The position numbers and the translations under genes were made by a program. DNA of 6,567 nt, taken from IMG/VR virus record IMGVR_UViG_2645727604_000023. The stretch is one strand, 5' to 3'. Under the pieces are notes generated by a model. It worked only from the letters and a program-made list of their open reading frames with translations. It was not told the origin of the DNA and did no database searches. Positions 1-6,567 of the stretch are shown here, one piece after another (position 1 is the stretch's first letter; each line of letters opens with the position of its first letter). The stretch is from a virus (Duplodnaviria; Heunggongvirae; Uroviricota; Caudoviricetes).

Positions 1-405
1 ATGGATCAGGTCGTTGTTTTTCAAAAGATGTTTGAGCAAGTGAGAAAAGAGCAAAACTTCTCCTGGTTTTATTCAGAATTAAAACATCACCGTATTGCAC
101 ATTACATTTATTATCTGGCTACGGATAACATCAGAATTATTACTCACGATGACACGGTTTTATTATTAAGAGGAACCAGGAACCTGTTAAAAGTTAGTAC
201 AACCAAGAACCCTGCTAAAATAAAAGAGGCCGCATTGCTTCATATTCGCGGAAAATCTACATTTCGGGAATACTGTTCAACACTGGCAGGCGCTGGCGTT
301 TTCCGGTGGGTTACTGATGTTAATTATAACAAACGCAGTTACTACGCCATTGATAATACGCTTTTATATATTGAAGATGTAGAAAATAATAAACCATTAA
401 TCTAG
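1..405 (+). CDS. DUF1398-family small protein (YcgX/YbcV/YdfO-like), function unknown
   Basis: 134-aa ORF beginning at window position 1 (upstream context not visible). The protein resembles the E. coli DUF1398 paralog family from memory, not from a search. AT-rich, on the chromosomal side of the icd-fragment junction. Confidence 0.6.
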   Translation: MDQVVVFQKMFEQVRKEQNFSWFYSELKHHRIAHYIYYLATDNIRIITHDDTVLLLRGTRNLLKVSTTKNPAKIKEAALLHIRGKSTFREYCSTLAGAGVFRWVTDVNYNKRSYYAIDNTLLYIEDVENNKPLI

Positions 406-612
406 CTAAAGTTGGGAGCTTAAGAAATGCTTCATAATTCAGTAAGGCATTAGCATAATGGAAATAAAAGTGCAGAGACCATCCCTATGGATGATTAATA
501 CTGTCTTTTTATTGCCCCCCATAAATAATCACCAGACCAATACGATCAAATTGATATTTGAAATGTGTTCACTTGACTTTTGATACGTTATTTTATAACG
601 GTTAACATATTT

Positions 613-653
613 ATAAAAACAACGGGCGTGTTATACGCCCGTTACAGTTTTTA
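613..653. terminator. Bidirectional rho-independent terminator (icd 3' end, and possibly the convergent upstream gene)
   Basis: Perfect 9-bp stem aacgggcgt (621-629) / acgcccgtt (635-643) with a 5-nt loop. It is flanked by an A-run on one side (ataaaaac, 613-620) and a T-run on the other (gttttta, 647-653), so each strand sees hairpin plus U-tract. It lies 14 nt beyond the icd-fragment stop. Confidence 0.55.
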
Positions 654-666
654 ACGCATGCAGAAA

Positions 667-831
667 TTACATATTCTTGATGATCGCGTCACCAAACTCT
701 GAACATTTCAGCAGTTTAGCGCCTTCCATCAGACGTTCGAAGTCATAGGTTACGGTCTTCGCATTGATTGCGCCTTCCATACCTTTAACAATCAGGTCAG
801 CCGCTTCAGTCCAACCCATATGGCGCAGCAT
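667..831 (-). pseudogene. icdC: Displaced 3' fragment of isocitrate dehydrogenase (icdC-like), last 54 codons plus stop
   Basis: Minus-strand translation gives [54 protein letters not shown], recognisable as the Icd C-terminus. The reading frame has no upstream continuation: sequence past 831 is unrelated AT-rich DNA. Confidence 0.8.
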
Positions 832-1064: not shown

Positions 1065-1898
1065 TTATTTCTGTAATCGGTTTATATTAACGTAAAGCAT
1101 CTCGATTAGTTCTTTTGCATTTTTACTATAGTGTAATTCTCTATGACAATTCGGACAAAGGGCAACACAGTTATCTGTTGTATCAGCACCACCTGAAGAC
1201 AGAGGAATTACATGATGCACTTCCAAATATGGGTTTCCATCATTTAAATAAAACGGAGCATTTTTACCACAGTTTTCACATATACCTTTACTTTGCTGTA
1301 AAATCCAAGCTTTTACCATCGGGTCTCGAACATAAACTTTTTGTAGTCTTTCTACCTCAACTGGTTTCCTGGAGCCCTCGGGTTGACTCAACGTTTTCTT
1401 AATTAATTTACTAACCCTCATATTCAGAAGCGATTCATCATCTGTAGGCTGTGAAAGCTCTGATAGTTCTCCACGTATTATAGACGCCCAAAAACTGTCA
1501 CTATAAATTCCTGGAACATTTATCAATATTCGTTTCGTTCTATTGCCGGAAGGAATTTCCTTTCTCCCCGTACGACTAAAATAAGCCTGATAACCACACA
1601 TCTTCAAGCGTATATCGCGGGGGCTATTACCAATCAAAGTAAAATATTCACCAGGATGGATTTTTCTTTCATCCAAAGAATGCATATGTTTTCTGACTGA
1701 TGATGACGCCAGATATACTACGACTTGGGATACACCAGAATCAACCAACCGTTCAATGATATAATCAAGAGCGATATTGTAATCTTTGTTTCTGTCACCC
1801 GGCCCCCACGACTCAAGGATTAGACCATAAACACCATCCTCTTCACCTATCGAGCACTCAGCTTTCAGTTCAATTCCATTATTATCAAAAACATGCAT
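1065..1898 (-). CDS. mcrA: McrA, 5-methylcytosine-specific (Type IV) restriction endonuclease with C-terminal HNH nuclease
   Basis: 277-aa ORF with N-terminus MHVFDNNGIELKAECSIGEEDGVYGL. C-terminal Cys/His HNH motif CENCGKNAPFYLNDGNPYLEVHHVIPLSSGGADTTDNCVALCPNCH. Size and sequence match my recollection of E. coli McrA; position next to pin at the prophage end also fits. Confidence 0.9.
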   Translation of the reverse strand: MHVFDNNGIELKAECSIGEEDGVYGLILESWGPGDRNKDYNIALDYIIERLVDSGVSQVVVYLASSSVRKHMHSLDERKIHPGEYFTLIGNSPRDIRLKMCGYQAYFSRTGRKEIPSGNRTKRILINVPGIYSDSFWASIIRGELSELSQPTDDESLLNMRVSKLIKKTLSQPEGSRKPVEVERLQKVYVRDPMVKAWILQQSKGICENCGKNAPFYLNDGNPYLEVHHVIPLSSGGADTTDNCVALCPNCHRELHYSKNAKELIEMLYVNINRLQK

Positions 1899-2004: not shown

Positions 2005-2559
2005 TTATTTATCCTCTGCAGGAAACCTCTTATACAAAGTTGACACACCAACATCATAGATAATCGCCACCTTCTGGCGAGGAACTCCTGATGCAATTAA
2101 TCGTCCGGCCTGTGCCCATTGTTCTGGTGTAAGTTTGGGACGACGTCCACCAATTCGCCCCTGTGCGCGAGCAGCTTCCAGTCCAGCTTTTGTTCGTTCA
2201 ACAATCAGTTCACGCTCCATTTCAGCCAGGGCACCCATCACATGAAAGAAAAAGCGTCCCATTGGTGTGCTGGTATCAATTGAATCCGTCAGACTACGAA
2301 AGTTGATGCCTCGTTCGCGCAACTCCTCCACCAACACGACAAGATGCCGCATACTACGCCCCAGCCGATCCAGCTTCCAGACAACCAGAGTGTCACCTGC
2401 CGATAATGTCCTGAGCAGTTTTTTCAGTCCCGGCCTTTCGGACTTTGTGCCGCTTATCTTGTCTTCAAAAATCAGCTCGCATCCTGCACAGTTCAGCGCA
2501 TTACGTTGTAGATCTGTGTTCTGGTCATTTGTTGATACGCGTACATAGCCAATAAGCAT
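2005..2559 (-). CDS. pin: Pin-type serine DNA invertase (Hin/Gin/Cin/Pin family)
   Basis: 184 aa from the start MLIGYVRVSTNDQ, which has the catalytic-serine motif of serine recombinases, and a C-terminal HTH (GVPRQKVAIIYDVGVSTLYKRF). A strong SD (GGGGGAG) sits about 5 nt upstream of this ATG. The ORF track's longer 2005-2595 version starts at an upstream ATG with no SD. Confidence 0.9.
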   Translation of the reverse strand: MLIGYVRVSTNDQNTDLQRNALNCAGCELIFEDKISGTKSERPGLKKLLRTLSAGDTLVVWKLDRLGRSMRHLVVLVEELRERGINFRSLTDSIDTSTPMGRFFFHVMGALAEMERELIVERTKAGLEAARAQGRIGGRRPKLTPEQWAQAGRLIASGVPRQKVAIIYDVGVSTLYKRFPAEDK

Positions 2560-2585: not shown

Positions 2586-2975
2586 ATGATGCCATTTGCT
2601 CGTTATTTCTGCATTTTCATAAACGTTGGTTTGGGAGAATTATCTCTGGCTGGCACTGCATCGGGTGTCATTGGCCTGAATGGGTATGTAACGATCCCGT
2701 TAATTATTTCAGGTTCCCGGAGAACACTGATTATTCAGTGGGGGCAGGCGAGATTTGGTGGGTCTGGTGGTGAAGATGCCGGATATCTTAACGATTTTCC
2801 TTTTGCCTTTCCGTCAGCATGTTATGGAATGATAGTTAGTCATGTGGGGCATACACCTTCAGGCGCAGGAATCCTGTCGGCTTCTGCAATTACATCAAAT
2901 CAGTTCCGCGGTTTTTCAAGCATAGCGACTGCTGCAAACGCTGTATTAGGTCGTTATATCGCTATAGGGGTGTAA
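2586..2975 (+). CDS. Promoterless alternative tail-fibre C-terminal cassette (Sv'-like), silent in this orientation
   Basis: The ORF crosses the left inversion site, whose conserved core encodes GLGE (codons 15-18). From the crossover the frame continues for 111 codons to a TAA that is coupled to the next gene (TAATATG). It has no plausible independent start context, so the functional unit is probably the portion from about 2628 onward, fused to the constant fibre N-terminus after inversion. Confidence 0.6.
   Translation: MMPFARYFCIFINVGLGELSLAGTASGVIGLNGYVTIPLIISGSRRTLIIQWGQARFGGSGGEDAGYLNDFPFAFPSACYGMIVSHVGHTPSGAGILSASAITSNQFRGFSSIATAANAVLGRYIAIGV
2614..2639. repeat. Left inversion crossover site (hix/gix-like 26-bp site)
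   Basis: Minus strand reads TTCTCCCAAACCAA-CGTTT; its first 14 bp are identical to the right site at 4498-4511 in inverted orientation, and 18 of the first 19 bp match. It fits the invertase-site pattern TTnnnnAAACC-NN-GGTTTnnnnAA and lies immediately upstream of pin. Confidence 0.75.
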
Positions 2976-2976
2976 T

Positions 2977-3414
2977 ATGTTTTATAGTCCATCTTTAAAC
3001 ATTTTTGTGAATCCTGCACTTAAGGATGATTACATTAATGCAAATTCATGGCCAGATGATGCTCTGGCTGTCAGTGATGATGTTTATAATGAATTTGCAA
3101 TCAATACGCCTCCAGATGACAAAATTCGTGTTGCAGGAAAAAATGGATTACCCACATGGGCACTAATACCTCCACCATCACATGAAGAACTTATTCAACA
3201 GGCAGAATCAGAAAGGCAATTATTGCTTAATCAGGCCAACGAATACATGAACAGTAAGCAATGGCCCGGTAAAGCCGCTATTGGTCGTCTGAAAGGTGAT
3301 GAACTGGCGCAATATAATTTGTGGCTGGATTATCTGGACGCACTGGAGCTGATCGATACTTCCGGTGCGCCAGATATTGAATGGCCTACGCCTCCGGCAG
3401 TTCAGGCCAGATGA
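2977..3414 (+). CDS. Tail-fibre assembly protein (Tfa/U'-like), partner of the silent cassette
   Basis: 145-aa ORF with SD AGGGG 6 nt upstream. Its C-terminus LDYLDALELIDTSGAPDIEWP resembles the conserved C-terminal motif of caudoviral tail-fibre assembly chaperones and the C-terminus of the convergent gene at 3386-3979. Confidence 0.75.
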   Translation: MFYSPSLNIFVNPALKDDYINANSWPDDALAVSDDVYNEFAINTPPDDKIRVAGKNGLPTWALIPPPSHEELIQQAESERQLLLNQANEYMNSKQWPGKAAIGRLKGDELAQYNLWLDYLDALELIDTSGAPDIEWPTPPAVQAR

Positions 3415-3979
3415 CATCCGGCGCTGTGCTGGTATCTGTTGCCGTCACCGCGTCAATGTAATCCAGCACAGCGTTAAGTCGGGTGTTTTCTGGCTGCGTC
3501 AGCTTCCGCCCAGCCTGTAATTTCAGTTGAATCAGACTGATGGAAGCCATTGCAGCATCAATCAGCGACTGGCGCTGTGCTTCTGCCGCTTCTACTGCGG
3601 CGCTATGCTGTGCCTCGGTATCCGTCACCCATTTCTCACCATCCCATTTATCGTATGGCGTTAACGGTGAAAGCGTGACATAACCGTCTTTGATGGCACC
3701 GATATAATCCACTGTAACAGCTGCGCCATTTTCAGTTGAGTAAACGGTCTCATTGCGATGGTCTTCTTCATGGCTCCATCCCTTACCCGTAAATACTGCC
3801 ACTTTTCCCGGGATGTTTTCGCCCGGGTCAATACCAGTGGAACAGGCGGGTATACTTACGCCAGTATTAATATATTCATCAGACCAGCCGGTATATTCAT
3901 ACGTTACTGCATTATAATAAAAACAACGCATATCGCCCGGCACTGTAGCCAGCCAATTTTCATCAAAAACAGGTATCAT
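3386..3979 (-). CDS. Tail-fibre assembly protein (Tfa/U-like), expressed-orientation partner
   Basis: 197-aa ORF; its start overlaps the tail-fibre stop (TAATG); SD GAGGG upstream. C-terminus LDYIDAVTATDTSTAPDVIWPELPEA is the Tfa C-terminal motif. Its 3' end overlaps the convergent tfa' gene by 29 bp. Confidence 0.8.
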   Translation of the reverse strand: MIPVFDENWLATVPGDMRCFYYNAVTYEYTGWSDEYINTGVSIPACSTGIDPGENIPGKVAVFTGKGWSHEEDHRNETVYSTENGAAVTVDYIGAIKDGYVTLSPLTPYDKWDGEKWVTDTEAQHSAAVEAAEAQRQSLIDAAMASISLIQLKLQAGRKLTQPENTRLNAVLDYIDAVTATDTSTAPDVIWPELPEA

Positions 3980-4800
3980 TATTTAGCCCTCACCAGAAAG
4001 TTGAATGCAATATTTCGTGGACGGGTTTCTGTATCTACATTTCCACTAATTTCACCATAACGTTTAACACTACGAGAGCTAAGAGCTCGTAGTGAGGAAG
4101 GCACATTAAGACCGGGTTCGTCCGTTTTAACTATTCCCCCGTCACCGTATGTAGCCAGTATTCCTGGGTTTACTCCTTCCCGTGCACTTCCTGCGGCAAG
4201 CCCGTCCCCCGTCCACAATTCCATATTGTGTGCATGATCCATAATTGTGTGTGATTGCCCTGAAAGTAGGGTACGTCCGACATCAATCCCGCGCCCATCA
4301 TCCCAGATACGAATGAAATCACCCCGTGCGTCAGGTAATGCTAGCGCCGGAAACACTTTCGCCAGCACAGGGTAATCAGTGGCAGAGAATTTCGCGCCGT
4401 TGAACTTCAAAAACACCATACTGGACCAACTGTCGATTACAGTATTTGGCATTGCGGCGGACGGCCAGAAGAACGGAACGCCAATACCTGGAGCACCTTC
4501 TCCCAAACCAAGGTTTTCGAGAGCCGTTTTCACCGTGCCATCCGATTTGATATCGCCAAACGGATTCTTGCGGCTTAACAGCAGCGCACGAAGCGCGGTA
4601 AGCAGCTGGTCATGCCGCCCCTTCTCCAGGCTGGCACCGGATGCCTCCACCACGCTGCAAAGCTCCTCCTGCAACATATCAAAGTAGTCATCATCAAGAT
4701 CGGTGGCAGGCGTGCCGGTCTGGGGGTTACCACGGGTAAAACCGTTCTTACCCGCGCCGAACTTATCCTTCTGCGCGGTTTTCGTGTCTATACGATGCAT
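3979..4800 (-). CDS. Tail-fibre protein: about 100-aa constant N-terminus (Mu S-like) fused to the currently active variable C-terminus
   Basis: 273-aa ORF with GGAG SD. The N-terminal stretch [17 protein letters not shown] resembles the Mu S / P2-type fibre N-terminus. The right inversion site lies in-frame at codons 95-101 (ENLGLGE). The C-terminal part carries a tail-collar-like motif (NG...YP.L...[19 protein letters not shown]). Confidence 0.8.
4498..4523. repeat. Right inversion crossover site (hix/gix-like), inside the tail-fibre coding sequence
   Basis: TTCTCCCAAACC-AA-GGTTTTCGAGAG, an imperfect dyad around a central AA. It is the inverted partner of 2614-2639. Confidence 0.75.
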
Positions 4801-4803
4801 GGA

Positions 4804-5388
4804 TTACTCCGGATATTTAAAAATTACGTAGGTATGCGACGGGCAGAGTTTGTTAAGCACACACTCGACAACGGTGTCGCCCCAGATACGCAGCGCGGAA
4901 TCACAGGGATCGCCACATGTCATCCAGGTGGTGTTGGTGGCGGCTGGCATGTTGACCTGCCAGTAATACCGCCATTCAGGCGCATTCACAGCGTCAGTAC
5001 AGGCCGATGAGCAGGTGAACGTGCTTTTGTCGTATCGCGTGATGGTGGCATCTGGCCTGCCCAGGGCAGCAAGCTGTGCAAGATAAAAATCCTCGTTGAT
5101 GCCGCCCGCCAGGTTAACCTTCGCATCCAGCCGTTGCTGACGCTGGCGAAGGGTCTGCGCTCCCGCCGGAATACATTCATCCGGCAGACCGCACAGACGC
5201 TCCCAGCGGTTTATCAGTTCAGTGGTGGTGCGCGGATCCAGCTCCCGCATCAGGGCATCCGCACGCTGATGAACGCGGGTTAATGACGGTGCCGCACCGG
5301 CAATCGCCGGATCGCTGGCTGACCACGCCGGACCGGGGGGCAACAGTGCCGACAACAGACGGATGTAATCATCGTTTGTCACGTCCAT
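4804..5388 (-). CDS. Mu gp48-like tail/baseplate protein (YmfQ-like, DUF2313 family)
   Basis: 194-aa ORF directly upstream of the tail-fibre gene, with a 3-nt gap. Its start overlaps the stop of the upstream J-like gene. Family assignment is from position and recalled similarity, not a search. Confidence 0.75.
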
Positions 5389-6440
5389 GAAATCGTCCCC
5401 AGAACCGCCAGTTCATTTTTCGCAATGGAGATATTGTCTGCCGGTGCAAGCAACTGATGGCTATATTCCCCGTTCGCACCGGAAATCGCCTCACTGATAC
5501 GCGATACCTTCAGTTCTCCCTGCGGATAACCATCACGCAGAAGAAACGAACGCAACTCCGCGGTGATGGCAGCCCGTATTTCCGGTGTGTCCGGCGTCAC
5601 GCGGATATGAAAATCCACCGTATGCGCCACCGGCCTGAATACATACAAATCAGAGCCTGCCACCGGGGCCAGTGGCACAATATGTTGTCTTGCCGCCGTT
5701 TCCGTTGATTCTTCCGGAATGGGATTAATCAGGTCACTGCTGGCAATCATCACACCGACAGTTCCCGTTCCCATCCAGTGACGGTATGTCCATGCGCGGG
5801 TAATGCCGGGCACTTCTTTAGCCCAGACGACATAGTCCACGTCAGCCCCGCCCTGAGGCGTCCAGTAATACCGCTCAATGACGCGGGCGCGCCACGTTTC
5901 CAGATCTTCAGTATCAAATCCGCCTGTAAGGGTGTCAGCCACACCGGAAGACGGCAGACCATTCACCGGCGTGACCAGGATTAATGACGTACCGTCGTCA
6001 GCGTTACCGACCGCACCTGAACTTGAGCAGGCGATCGGCACGCGCAGGACACCACCGGAGCTGGTTGCATCGGCAGTTGCCGTGTACTGAACCAGGTCAT
6101 CGCGCTGAATAACACTCCCGGCGGTCACCTTCAGGCCATCATCGCTGACACCTTCCCAGCGCATATACCCGCTGGCAGCCGTGGCCCCCTTGCGCGGACA
6201 CCGTTTCATCGCAGCATGTCGCGCCAGCCAGGACTCATCGCACAGGTCAGGCAGCATGTTCATTGCCAGATAATCGATGTAACCGTAAACCGTATGCAGC
6301 GCCGCCGCATACACCTTTGCCCGCACGTCTTCATCCATGCGCCGGAGCGTGTCGCTGACGTCCAGCCTGGCGAATAAATCGTTACGGAGCATACTGATAT
6401 TTTCTGCCAGCGTCGGGCGCTGAAATTCACTGTCCGCCAT
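5379..6440 (-). CDS. Baseplate J-like protein (Mu gp47 / P2 gpJ family)
   Basis: 353-aa ORF on the minus strand in a GC-rich region. Located between the gp46-like and gp48-like genes, as in Mu. The many small overlapping ORFs in the track here are out-of-frame artefacts. Confidence 0.75.
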
Positions 6441-6567
6441 GCGTTATCGCACTCCACAGATCATCAAAAGAAATCATTACCGGTCCGTCACGACGCCAGA
6501 GAGTGATACTGTTACCCAGTTCATTAATCCCGGTGCGGCGGATATCCAGATCAATACGGGACACCAC
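6427..6567 (-). CDS. Partial CDS, C-terminal 46 codons of a gp46/GPW-like baseplate protein; 5' end lies beyond the window
   Basis: Hand translation of the minus strand from 6567 gives an open frame [46 protein letters not shown] with the stop at 6427-6429. It overlaps the start of the J-like gene by 14 nt. The function is inferred only from its position in the Mu-like order. Confidence 0.45.
   Translation of the reverse strand: MVSRIDLDIRRTGINELGNSITLWRRDGPVMISFDDLWSAITHGGQ

Follow-up and report, generated by a model that had tools for sequence, protein, structure and literature searches.

A classical Pin/P-segment tail-fibre inversion switch at the icd-distal end of a probable e14-family prophage

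Our analysis of a 6,567-nt stretch of viral DNA (record IMGVR_UViG_2645727604_000023; hereafter the window, to which all positions refer) indicates, with a probability of roughly 0.9, that it contains the icd-distal end of a temperate prophage of the e14 family, carrying a classical P-segment inversion switch. Members of this family have a lambdoid early region and a contractile tail of the Mu/SfV type. A serine invertase gene was found beside an invertible tail-fibre segment, as had been proposed from an initial sequence-only reading of the same DNA, whose coordinates proved right to the base. The switch of the window is real and almost certainly functional. The Pin tail-fibre inversion switch as such is already known and well described: the Pin/P-segment switch of e14 was reportedly described by Plasterk and van de Putte in EMBO J in 1985, and K-12 e14 is said to be treated also by Mehta, Casjens and Krishnaswamy in BMC Microbiol in 2004.

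The chromosomal side of the window holds icdC, the displaced 3′ end of icd (667–831, minus strand), and the prophage/chromosome junction was placed at 831/832, where the match to the prophage-free genome E2348/69, which covers window positions 380–831, goes no further. The last prophage gene, mcrA (1065–1898, minus strand), encodes an HNH 5-methylcytosine-specific endonuclease, as indicated by its Pfam HNH match and by the mcrA annotation in PSS-08-2 and K-12. Such an insertion into icd, which leaves the displaced 3′ part of the gene adjoining mcrA–pin, is the arrangement that marks an e14 element. The opposite end of the window is occupied by three baseplate genes on the minus strand, namely the ymfQ/Mu gp48-like baseplate wedge gene (4804–5388; Pfam Phage_Mu_Gp48, ~97% DNA identity to SfV), a full-length baseplate J/Mu gp47-like gene (5379–6440; Pfam Baseplate_J, E = 1.4e-51), and the C-terminal end of a Mu gp46-like baseplate gene (6427–6567), whose upstream part lies beyond the window and which is colinear with a PSS-08-2 gene annotated as 'phage GP46 family protein'. 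None of the eight phage ORFs in the window is interrupted, and an Rfam scan of the window returned no match. Among the genomes compared, PSS-08-2 is the closest, being 99% identical to and colinear with the window, including across position 6169; it carries a complete prophage of ~39 kb within icd, in which the integrase, lysis, terminase, portal, capsid, sheath, tube, tape-measure, and baseplate genes are annotated as intact. RefSeq already holds sequences that are 99.8% identical to the window, with pinE annotated. Record ON470584.1 (vB_EcoM-689R6) was considered as a viable Pin-carrying phage and rejected, as it contains the host genes icd, rluE, nudJ, and mnmA; as proof of virions, it also suffers from a scrambled gene order around pin.

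The pin gene (2005–2559, minus strand; start MLIGYVRVSTNDQ) encodes a serine DNA invertase that fits its class both in size, with 184 residues against ~180–190 for the class, and in domain organization, with an N-terminal resolvase domain (Pfam Resolvase, E = 1.5e-51) carrying Ser9 and a C-terminal HTH (HTH_7, E = 1.5e-13). In the ORF list, a 196-aa ORF starting from 2595 corresponds to pin with an upstream extension. The protein matched the structure of Mu Gin (PDB 3uj3) with E = 2e-94, and it is identical to K-12 PinE at 180 of 184 residues and to Gin at 78.6%, confirming the homology to K-12 e14 and Mu that had been put forward earlier. The catalytic residues are all present, with Ser9 lying in a YVRVSTNDQ motif and accompanied by R7, D64, R65, and R68. 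In Hin, contacts with Fis and the enhancer involve Q151, R154, and L155, together with the basic residues 47, 48, and 51 (PMC3798978); the Pin equivalents, Q150, R153, and L154 as well as K46, K47, and R50, are conserved. By homology, pin nt 22–85 (2475–2538, minus strand) contain a candidate Fis-dependent recombinational enhancer, where two Fis-like 15-mers, GTATCAACAAATGAC and GTGCAGGATGCGAGC, picked out with a crude Fis score, occupy the same places in pin and gin (nt 22–36 and 71–85). The centre of the proximal 15-mer lies 95.5 bp from the centre of the left crossover site, and the Hin enhancer lies ~100 bp from its site (PMC3798978). At synonymous sites, the comparison of pin with gin over the candidate enhancer gave 55% versus 43% identical codons, which is not significant (p = 0.34). 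A promoter scan found no sigma-70-like promoter for pin between 2560 and 2700.

The invertible segment is bounded by two 26-bp crossover sites (pix) in inverted orientation. The left, pin-proximal site (2614–2639, minus strand; TTCTCCCAAACCAACGTTTATGAAAA when read on that strand) lies 55 bp from the pin gene, where a gp53-like C-terminal cassette has its 5′ edge. The right site (4498–4523, plus strand; TTCTCCCAAACCAAGGTTTTCGAGAG) covers codons ~93–101 (ALENLGLGE) of the 273-aa fibre ORF, in agreement with its earlier placement within the tail-fibre reading frame. Each site is an imperfect dyad, whose half-sites agree at 8–9 of 12 positions on either side of a central AA, the crossover dinucleotide (2626–2627 on the left and 4510–4511 on the right). 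The segment measures 1884 bp from one crossover centre to the other, or 1910 bp when both sites are included in full. The two sites are identical at 21 of 26 positions, including exactly the first 14, and their homology ends at the site edges. The description of inverted 26-bp sites with 14 exact bases is therefore upheld, whereas its labelling of these bases as a 'core' is not, because the shared 14 bases consist of one half-site plus the crossover dinucleotide and hence do not form a central core. No further copy of the site was found in the window, and a multi-site shufflon of the Min/p15B type was rejected on the grounds that there are two sites only. By itself, the inverted repeat exceeds chance by a modest margin only: the best inverted 26-mer pairs reached 18–20 matches in 30 shuffles and 21/26 in the window. 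Certainty about the sites comes instead from their identity to the K-12 e14 sites, at 26 of 26 positions in each case (the right one is also identical to SfV orf21), and from the fact that all homology breakpoints and observed inversions end there; at the left site, for example, the homology with both K-12 and FDAARGOS_1373 breaks. Both sites also match Mu gix at 17–18 of 26 positions, so that the alignment to known pix and gix sites speaks for the original proposal.

In its current orientation, the segment contributes to a tail-fibre ORF of 273 aa (3979–4800, minus strand). The constant fibre N-terminus (Sc, ~97 codons; 4511–4800, minus strand) lies outside the segment and is 99% identical to the N-terminus of K-12 StfP and identical to the SfV fibre at 99 of 101 positions. 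The E-type variable C-terminus (residues ~98–273; 3979–4510, minus strand) gave a weak Pfam Collar match, under the curated cut-off, and its tip is assumed, from its position, to bind the receptor. The same cassette includes a TfaE-like assembly gene of 197 aa (3386–3979, minus strand; Caudo_TAP, E = 1.2e-27), whose product is identical to that of CX05 at 196 of 197 residues. It converges, with a 29-nt overlap, on the TfaP-like assembly gene of the P-type cassette (145 aa; 2977–3414, plus strand; Caudo_TAP, E = 1.2e-32). The remainder of that cassette (gp53-like, 2627–2975) is part of a 129-aa ORF (2586–2975, plus strand; Pfam Gp53-like_C at residues 48–128), whose leader, MMPFARYFCIFINVGLGE, is coded outside the segment and across the left site. 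The label promoterless, given earlier to the left cassette, needs correction in that an ATG-initiated ORF, with its start beyond the segment, continues across the left site. When the segment was flipped in silico, the fibre stayed in frame and went from 273 to 212 aa, with the join at ...ENLGLGE; the P-type part of ORF 2586–2975 became the C-terminus of the 212-aa fibre, and the second assembly gene was brought in. The flipped junction corresponds to an annotated gene in 24 genomes. The constant part and the start codon are thus located outside the segment, while two opposed tip cassettes, each with its own assembly gene, are located inside, which is the organization of a tail-fibre switch. 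The suggestion that the locus is built like Mu Gin/G is borne out by the in-frame fusions both ways, the assembly gene in each cassette, and the occurrence of both orientations in nature.

Inversion is observed at near-identical loci. Two assemblies of MG1655, NC_000913.3 and CP032667.1, have 100% identical flanks and differ solely by a 1839-bp inverted block ending in repeats. Likewise, the flanks of the sibling isolates CX05 and CX07 are 100% identical, and a 1,885-bp flip is all that separates the two; their sites are identical to those of the window, and their fibre is identical to the window's at 271 of 273 residues. Across complete E. coli genomes, the window-type junction was found in 51 and the flipped junction in 24. 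The exact cassette pair of the window (>99% identity) is present in three complete genomes only, all in the window orientation, and a search with the flipped segment plus flanks found no flipped counterpart among complete genomes; the evidence for flipping therefore comes from CX05/CX07, with one shared cassette, and from K-12. The kind of check proposed with the sequence-only reading already exists for K-12: in clonal MG1655 cultures, both orientations coexist, as detected by PCR and whole-genome sequencing (PMC4272514), and in K-12 the inversion is driven by PinE, such that deletion of pinE locks the segment (PMC12529663).

In the following scheme, the reaction chemistry and the roles given to the enhancer and to Fis come from the Gin and Hin literature. 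By analogy with these enzymes, Pin dimers would bind the two inverted 26-bp sites, and, at a distance of ~95 bp from the left site, a Fis-bound enhancer in the first part of pin would assemble them into an invertasome. Ser9 would cut the central AA of each site with a 2-bp stagger, one subunit pair would rotate by 180 degrees, and religation of the ends would leave 1884 bp inverted. Since the segment excludes the fibre promoter, the start codon, and the first ~97 codons, a flip would swap the receptor-binding C-terminus, with the E-type tip giving the 273-aa fibre and the gp53-like P-type tip giving the 212-aa fibre. The assembly chaperone would be swapped along with it (TfaE-like, 197 aa, versus TfaP-like, 145 aa). 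It is the E-type fibre that occupies the expressed position in the window. With tip and chaperone exchanged together, a lysogen population would yield particles with two adsorption specificities, and we infer that real virions would have an altered host range between the two orientations.

Comparison with the Mu Gin/G system revealed a close likeness in design. The Mu invertase is 79% identical, lies just outside its segment beside the silent cassette, and is associated with a constant fibre N-terminus and alternative C-termini, each with an assembly gene; the gix sites fall exactly on the annotated boundaries of the G segment, and the baseplate genes upstream of the window's switch are homologues of Mu gp46/47/48. 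The two differ in dimensions, with a G segment of ~3 kb, a constant part of 170 codons, and a fibre of 504 aa in Mu, as opposed to a segment of 1.9 kb, a constant part of ~97 codons, and fibres of 212 and 273 aa in the window. They also differ in the central dinucleotide (GA in Mu gix, AA in the window) and in the surrounding phage, which is lambdoid/SfV-like in the window, whereas Mu is a transposing phage. The viable, serotype-converting Shigella phages SfV, SfII, SfI, and SfIV share the baseplate genes and the fibre constant part at ~97% DNA identity, from window position 4497 onward, and the nearly identical fibre N-terminus of SfV (99/101) contains a perfect copy of the right site. The SfV region that we fetched has one site, one fibre tip, and one assembly gene, with gtr genes beside the fibre module; neither an invertase nor a second site was found in it, and this region therefore holds no switch. 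Hin belongs to the same invertase subclass as Pin and shares with it the conserved Fis-contact and basic helix-B residues, presumably the Fis/enhancer-dependent mechanism, and a similar site–enhancer spacing (~100 bp in Hin, compared with the candidate in the window). Hin lies within its own segment and flips a promoter. In contrast, the window's invertase lies outside the segment, and its flip exchanges coding sequence.

With e14 of K-12, the window shares the position in icd, the displaced icd 3′ end, the order mcrA, pin, segment, ymfQ, and baseplate J, and flanks that are 97–98% identical. Both contain the same two cassette families, the gp53-like P type and the E type, with one Caudo_TAP assembly gene per cassette, and identities between the cassette proteins amount to 42% for the E-type tip (against the variable part of K-12 stfE), ~37% for the P-type tip, 63% for TfaE, and 50% for TfaP. 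As DNA, the segment can be aligned with K-12 at 3259–3667 only, and it spans 1884 bp between the crossover centres versus 1827 bp in K-12, the latter figure being calculated from the site positions. The orientation of the window is opposite to that of the NC_000913.3 reference, and its chromosomal flank, unlike that of K-12, is without iraM and ymgK. The K-12 match stops at the two sites and again at 6169, beyond which the window continues with a complete baseplate J gene, whereas K-12 e14 has a 15-kb deleted structure with a truncated jayE adjoining beeE. Neither this deleted structure nor the K-12 stfP/stfE cassettes, which characterize K-12 e14 in the strict sense, were found in the window. 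Given the lack of the deletion at 6169 and cassettes that are 37–63% identical, the element is a relative within the e14 family and not K-12 e14. The latter is annotated as cryptic, with terminase, portal, and baseplate J (jayE) pseudogenes; its switch genes are largely intact too, and the defects annotated in it affect structural genes further upstream. The sequence-only reading had remarked on intact frames in an element regarded as defective. Its observation on the switch and baseplate frames is correct, but the paradox does not apply to a window that is not K-12 e14: the window represents a fuller relative, whose closest genome holds the full ~39-kb prophage, and the puzzle of a defective yet intact element dissolves.

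Several other explanations of the locus were weighed against an e14-family prophage with a working switch. The inverted repeat might be a chance match or a scar of module exchange, with no inversion taking place at this locus. Its score barely exceeds that of the shuffles (21/26 against 18–20), and the orphan right site of SfV, with no invertase or second site in the fetched region, indicates that the sequence persists as a module boundary too. We nevertheless consider this explanation extremely improbable and effectively refuted, since both sites are identical to K-12 sites that recombine experimentally, an intact invertase lies 55 bp away, and near-identical loci differ by exactly such an inversion. 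It is somewhat unlikely that the switch is a functional but inconsequential relic, in which Pin flips the DNA of a prophage that makes no particles and the switch has no phenotype. The cryptic e14 of K-12, whose segment still inverts, is consistent with such a state, as is the fact that the window shows nothing upstream of the gp46-like gene. Against it stand the eight of eight uninterrupted phage ORFs and the integrity of the window through 6169, where it stays 99% identical to and colinear with PSS-08-2, whose phage genes are annotated as intact.

A further possibility concerns ORF 2586–2975, the positional counterpart of K-12 StfE2, to which it is 44% identical over 88 aligned residues including a near-identical leader. 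K-12 StfE2 was reported in 2025 to block adsorption of phage T2 (PMC12529663). The switch might be a host-exapted, phase-variable phage defence, whose relevant output is this ORF and not the virion fibre; the gp53-like domain would bind to receptors of the outer membrane and keep incoming phages from adsorbing, and a host-range role may coexist. Such a defence would be tied to the window orientation, in which alone the ORF exists. In support of this notion, the segment orientation matching the window leads to T2 resistance in K-12, and plasmid-produced StfE2, with its gp53-like domain at residues 47–125, blocks T2 adsorption (PMC12529663). The ORF of the window has an ATG, a leader that agrees with K-12 at 16 of 18 residues, and the Gp53-like_C domain at residues 48–128. 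However, its variable domain is ~37% identical to that of K-12 (44% with the leader), so that any specificity would differ. No convincing plus-strand promoter was found upstream of the ORF; the sole match (9/12) lies within pin at a distance of 180 bp, and the number of promoter-like matches in the region equalled that expected from shuffled sequence. Moreover, a read-through ORF arises trivially wherever a site is in frame, and the silent S′ cassette of Mu is likewise annotated 28 nt past the G-segment boundary. The evidence on the StfE2 mechanism consists of overexpression and docking (PMC12529663). Taken together, we regard the defence as an unlikely main role of the locus. More doubtful still is a combination of roles, in which a complete, inducible prophage would use its Pin switch both to alternate the host range of an SfV-like myovirus and to vary by phase an adsorption block exerted by the 129-aa StfE2-like protein. 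If this were true, the lysogen would be blocked against a different phage set than that of K-12 StfE2, given that the gp53-like domains are ~37% identical.

As a discovery, the Pin switch of this e14-family prophage carries little weight, having been described in 1985 and its inversion since measured by PCR, whole-genome sequencing, and qPCR. It is of modest value as an example. K-12 e14 derives by deletion from a family of prophages that are integrated in icd and apparently complete, and the fibre-tip cassettes are exchanged as modules whose limits coincide exactly with the recombination sites. At the Pin locus, assemblies of one strain can legitimately differ, and with the alternative tip alleles one could ask whether the anti-phage effect of StfE2 reaches beyond K-12.

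The gene order, assembled from the ORF listing, Pfam scans and the annotation of the best-matching genomes, identified the window as the icd-distal end of an e14-family prophage, running in the direction opposite to the K-12 map. On the chromosomal side, ycgX (1–405, plus strand) is followed on the minus strand by the displaced icd 3′ end (667–831), the HNH endonuclease gene mcrA (1065–1898) and a gene for a 184-aa serine recombinase with Resolvase and HTH_7 domains (2005–2559). Beyond these lie a gp53-like fibre C-terminal cassette (2627–2975) and a tail-fibre assembly gene (2977–3414) on the plus strand and, on the minus strand, a convergent assembly gene (3386–3979), a 273-aa tail fibre (3979–4800), the Mu gp48-like ymfQ (4804–5388), baseplate J (5379–6440) and the C-terminal end of a gp46-like gene (6427–6567). 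The two assembly genes overlap by 29 nt (3386–3414). The prophage/chromosome junction falls at 831/832: E2348/69, a prophage-free strain with an intact icd, matches window 380–831 and ends exactly there, and 667–831 is the original icd 3′ end. Two AT-rich non-coding stretches flank mcrA (832–1064 and 1899–2004); neither yielded an Rfam match or any notable sign of a promoter or terminator.

The sequence-only reading had proposed two inverted 26-bp crossover sites, and they lie exactly where it placed them: the right site at 4498–4523 (TTCTCCCAAACCAAGGTTTTCGAGAG) and the left site at 2614–2639 (TTCTCCCAAACCAACGTTTATGAAAA on the other strand), with 1884 bp from crossover centre to crossover centre. 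The sites agree at 21/26 positions, similarity stops at their edges, and each forms an imperfect dyad about a central AA. The 14 shared bases described as a core are indeed exact and stand first in both sites; this 14-mer corresponds to one half-site plus the crossover dinucleotide. By the bare statistic, the repeat is only slightly above chance (21/26 against 18–20 across 30 shuffles). The sites are certain because both are identical to the two K-12 e14 sites (26/26), match Mu gix at 17–18 of 26 positions, and contain all homology breakpoints found, while the window holds no third crossover site. The Mu gix copies coincide exactly with the annotated G-segment boundaries.

The right site occupies codons ~93–101 of the fibre (…ALENLGLGE…), and its GLGE codons recur in the left site, where they share the reading frame of the silent cassette. 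When the segment was flipped in silico between the central dinucleotides, the 273-aa fibre became an uninterrupted one of 212 aa, now with a gp53-like tip, and the second assembly gene came to lie behind it. Mu S/U–S′/U′ follows the same logic, on a larger scale than here, and the proposed Mu Gin/G-type architecture was borne out. Natural inversions were found in paired genomes. Two MG1655 sequences (the reference NC_000913.3 and a second assembly, CP032667.1) are 100% identical on both sides and differ solely by an inverted block of 1839 bp that ends in the inverted repeats. The sibling isolates CX05 and CX07 likewise share 100% identical flanks, between which 1885 bp are inverted at sites that match those of the window exactly; their proteins match those of the window at 271/273 (fibre) and 196/197 (assembly protein) residues. 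Among 5,426 complete E. coli genomes, 51 carry the constant fibre N-terminus joined to the E-type tip, which is the one expressed in the window, and 24 carry the flipped junction to the P-type, gp53-like tip, including FDAARGOS_1373, which was examined in detail. Only three complete genomes carry the exact cassette pair of the window, all in the window orientation. Clonal MG1655 cultures hold both orientations side by side, as confirmed by PCR (Goldberg et al., PMC4272514). Kirigo et al. (PMC12529663) reported MG1655 sequenced in both orientations, about 30% inversion in the wild type by qPCR, inversion of the segment by PinE, PinQ and PinR, and locking of the segment upon pinE deletion.

The invertase begins with MLIGYVRVSTNDQ at 2559; the ORF that opens at 2595 is longer only by an upstream extension. 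The protein shares 180/184 residues with K-12 PinE and 78.6% identity with Mu Gin, matches the sequence of the Gin crystal structure (E=2e-94), and retains Ser9, R7, D64, R65 and R68. The Hin, Gin and Cin systems have their enhancer within the 5′ end of the invertase gene, and Fis-like 15-mers common to pin and gin were found here at nt 22–36 and 71–85 (window 2475–2538). The centre of the proximal 15-mer is 95.5 bp from the left site; the corresponding Hin distance is about 100 bp (PMC3798978). The invertase also has Q150, R153 and L154 and the basic residues K46, K47 and R50, whose counterparts are specific to Fis/enhancer-dependent invertases (McLean et al., PMC3798978). Synonymous codons in this region are not significantly more conserved between pin and gin than elsewhere, so that 2475–2538 is only an inferred, candidate enhancer.

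The left-hand cassette had been described as promoterless, which needs correcting: an ORF that opens outside the segment (ATG at 2586) crosses the left site into the P-type cassette and encodes 129 aa with a Gp53-like_C domain (residues 48–128). In its leader, 16/18 residues agree with K-12 StfE2. According to Kirigo et al. (PMC12529663), StfE2 exists only in the orientation seen in the window and, when produced from a plasmid, blocks T2 adsorption, so that a similar adsorption block might be a second function of ORF 2586–2975. We rate this possibility low because the P-type variable domain shares only about 37% identity with its K-12 counterpart, no convincing promoter is predicted upstream, and an in-frame site yields such read-through ORFs automatically; the silent S′ cassette of Mu is annotated as a similar read-through.

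Alignment with K-12 shows that the window is not K-12 e14. Only three stretches align: 616–2639 (97.9%), ending at the left site; 4493–6169 (96.9%), beginning at the right site and ending at the K-12 internal deletion; and 3259–3667 (89%), spanning the conserved C-termini of both assembly genes. Identities of the cassette proteins to their K-12 counterparts are 42% (E-type tip), about 37% (P-type tip), 63% (TfaE) and 50% (TfaP). Within the segment, DNA alignment with K-12 is still possible only for the C-terminal halves of the assembly genes, so the fibre tips and assembly N-termini appear to be swapped as modules that flank a conserved middle. Position 6169 is the K-12 e14 deletion breakpoint, where a truncated jayE adjoins the portal remnant beeE, whereas the window continues with full-length baseplate J and the gp46-like gene. 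Strain PSS-08-2 is colinear with the window and 99% identical; its icd element of about 39 kb is annotated with intact integrase, excisionase, repressor, lysis, terminase, portal, capsid, sheath, tube, tape-measure and baseplate genes. K-12 e14 is best seen as a deletion derivative of this phage family. The apparent paradox of a defective e14 with intact reading frames dissolves: the frames are intact, and the window belongs to a fuller relative.

In the chromosomal flank, the window lacks the ~820-bp ymgK–iraM block of K-12 and PSS-08-2 (at 616–658, between a ymgL-like ORF at 458–583 and icdC at 667–831). A 43-bp direct repeat with the icd terminator hairpin borders the block in both strains and is present as a single copy in the window. 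Lack of iraM is a common arrangement, with at least 80% of the junction query covered in 1129 complete genomes; among the top matches listed, ten are contiguous and iraM-less (e.g. E2348/69, 99.1% identical), while the first, KR2009, retains iraM.

The fibre constant part and baseplate genes are about 97% identical to those of the viable Shigella phages SfV, SfII, SfI and SfIV, and the constant part matches the SfV fibre at 99/101 residues. In the SfV (NC_003444.1) fibre gene orf21, the right site is present once, identical at 26/26 positions and at the same codons (3502–3527 in the region examined), and no second site or invertase was found in the 9-kb region covered. In this phage family the site thus also marks a module boundary, and the orphan copy could in principle be a target of host-encoded Pin in trans. 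The GenBank phage record ON470584.1 ('Escherichia phage vB_EcoM-689R6') includes chromosomal icd, rluE, nudJ, mnmA and hflD. Its pin–mcrA directly precedes the fibre constant part, with the cassettes absent, and the record resembles an assembly that broke at the invertible segment and was joined up again there. The pin–segment–baseplate module also occurs outside the mcrA/icd context in FDAARGOS_1373, CX07 and CX05, with a LEM-3-like GIY-YIG gene as neighbour in place of mcrA and with Pin DNA 90–94% identical; the switch module therefore moves between distinct prophage backbones.

Taken together, the observation of the sequence-only reading is confirmed and its interpretation supported with two corrections. 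RefSeq already includes annotated sequences essentially identical to the window, and the switch itself is the long-known Pin/P-segment switch, represented here by a natural allele from a fuller prophage of the e14 family.
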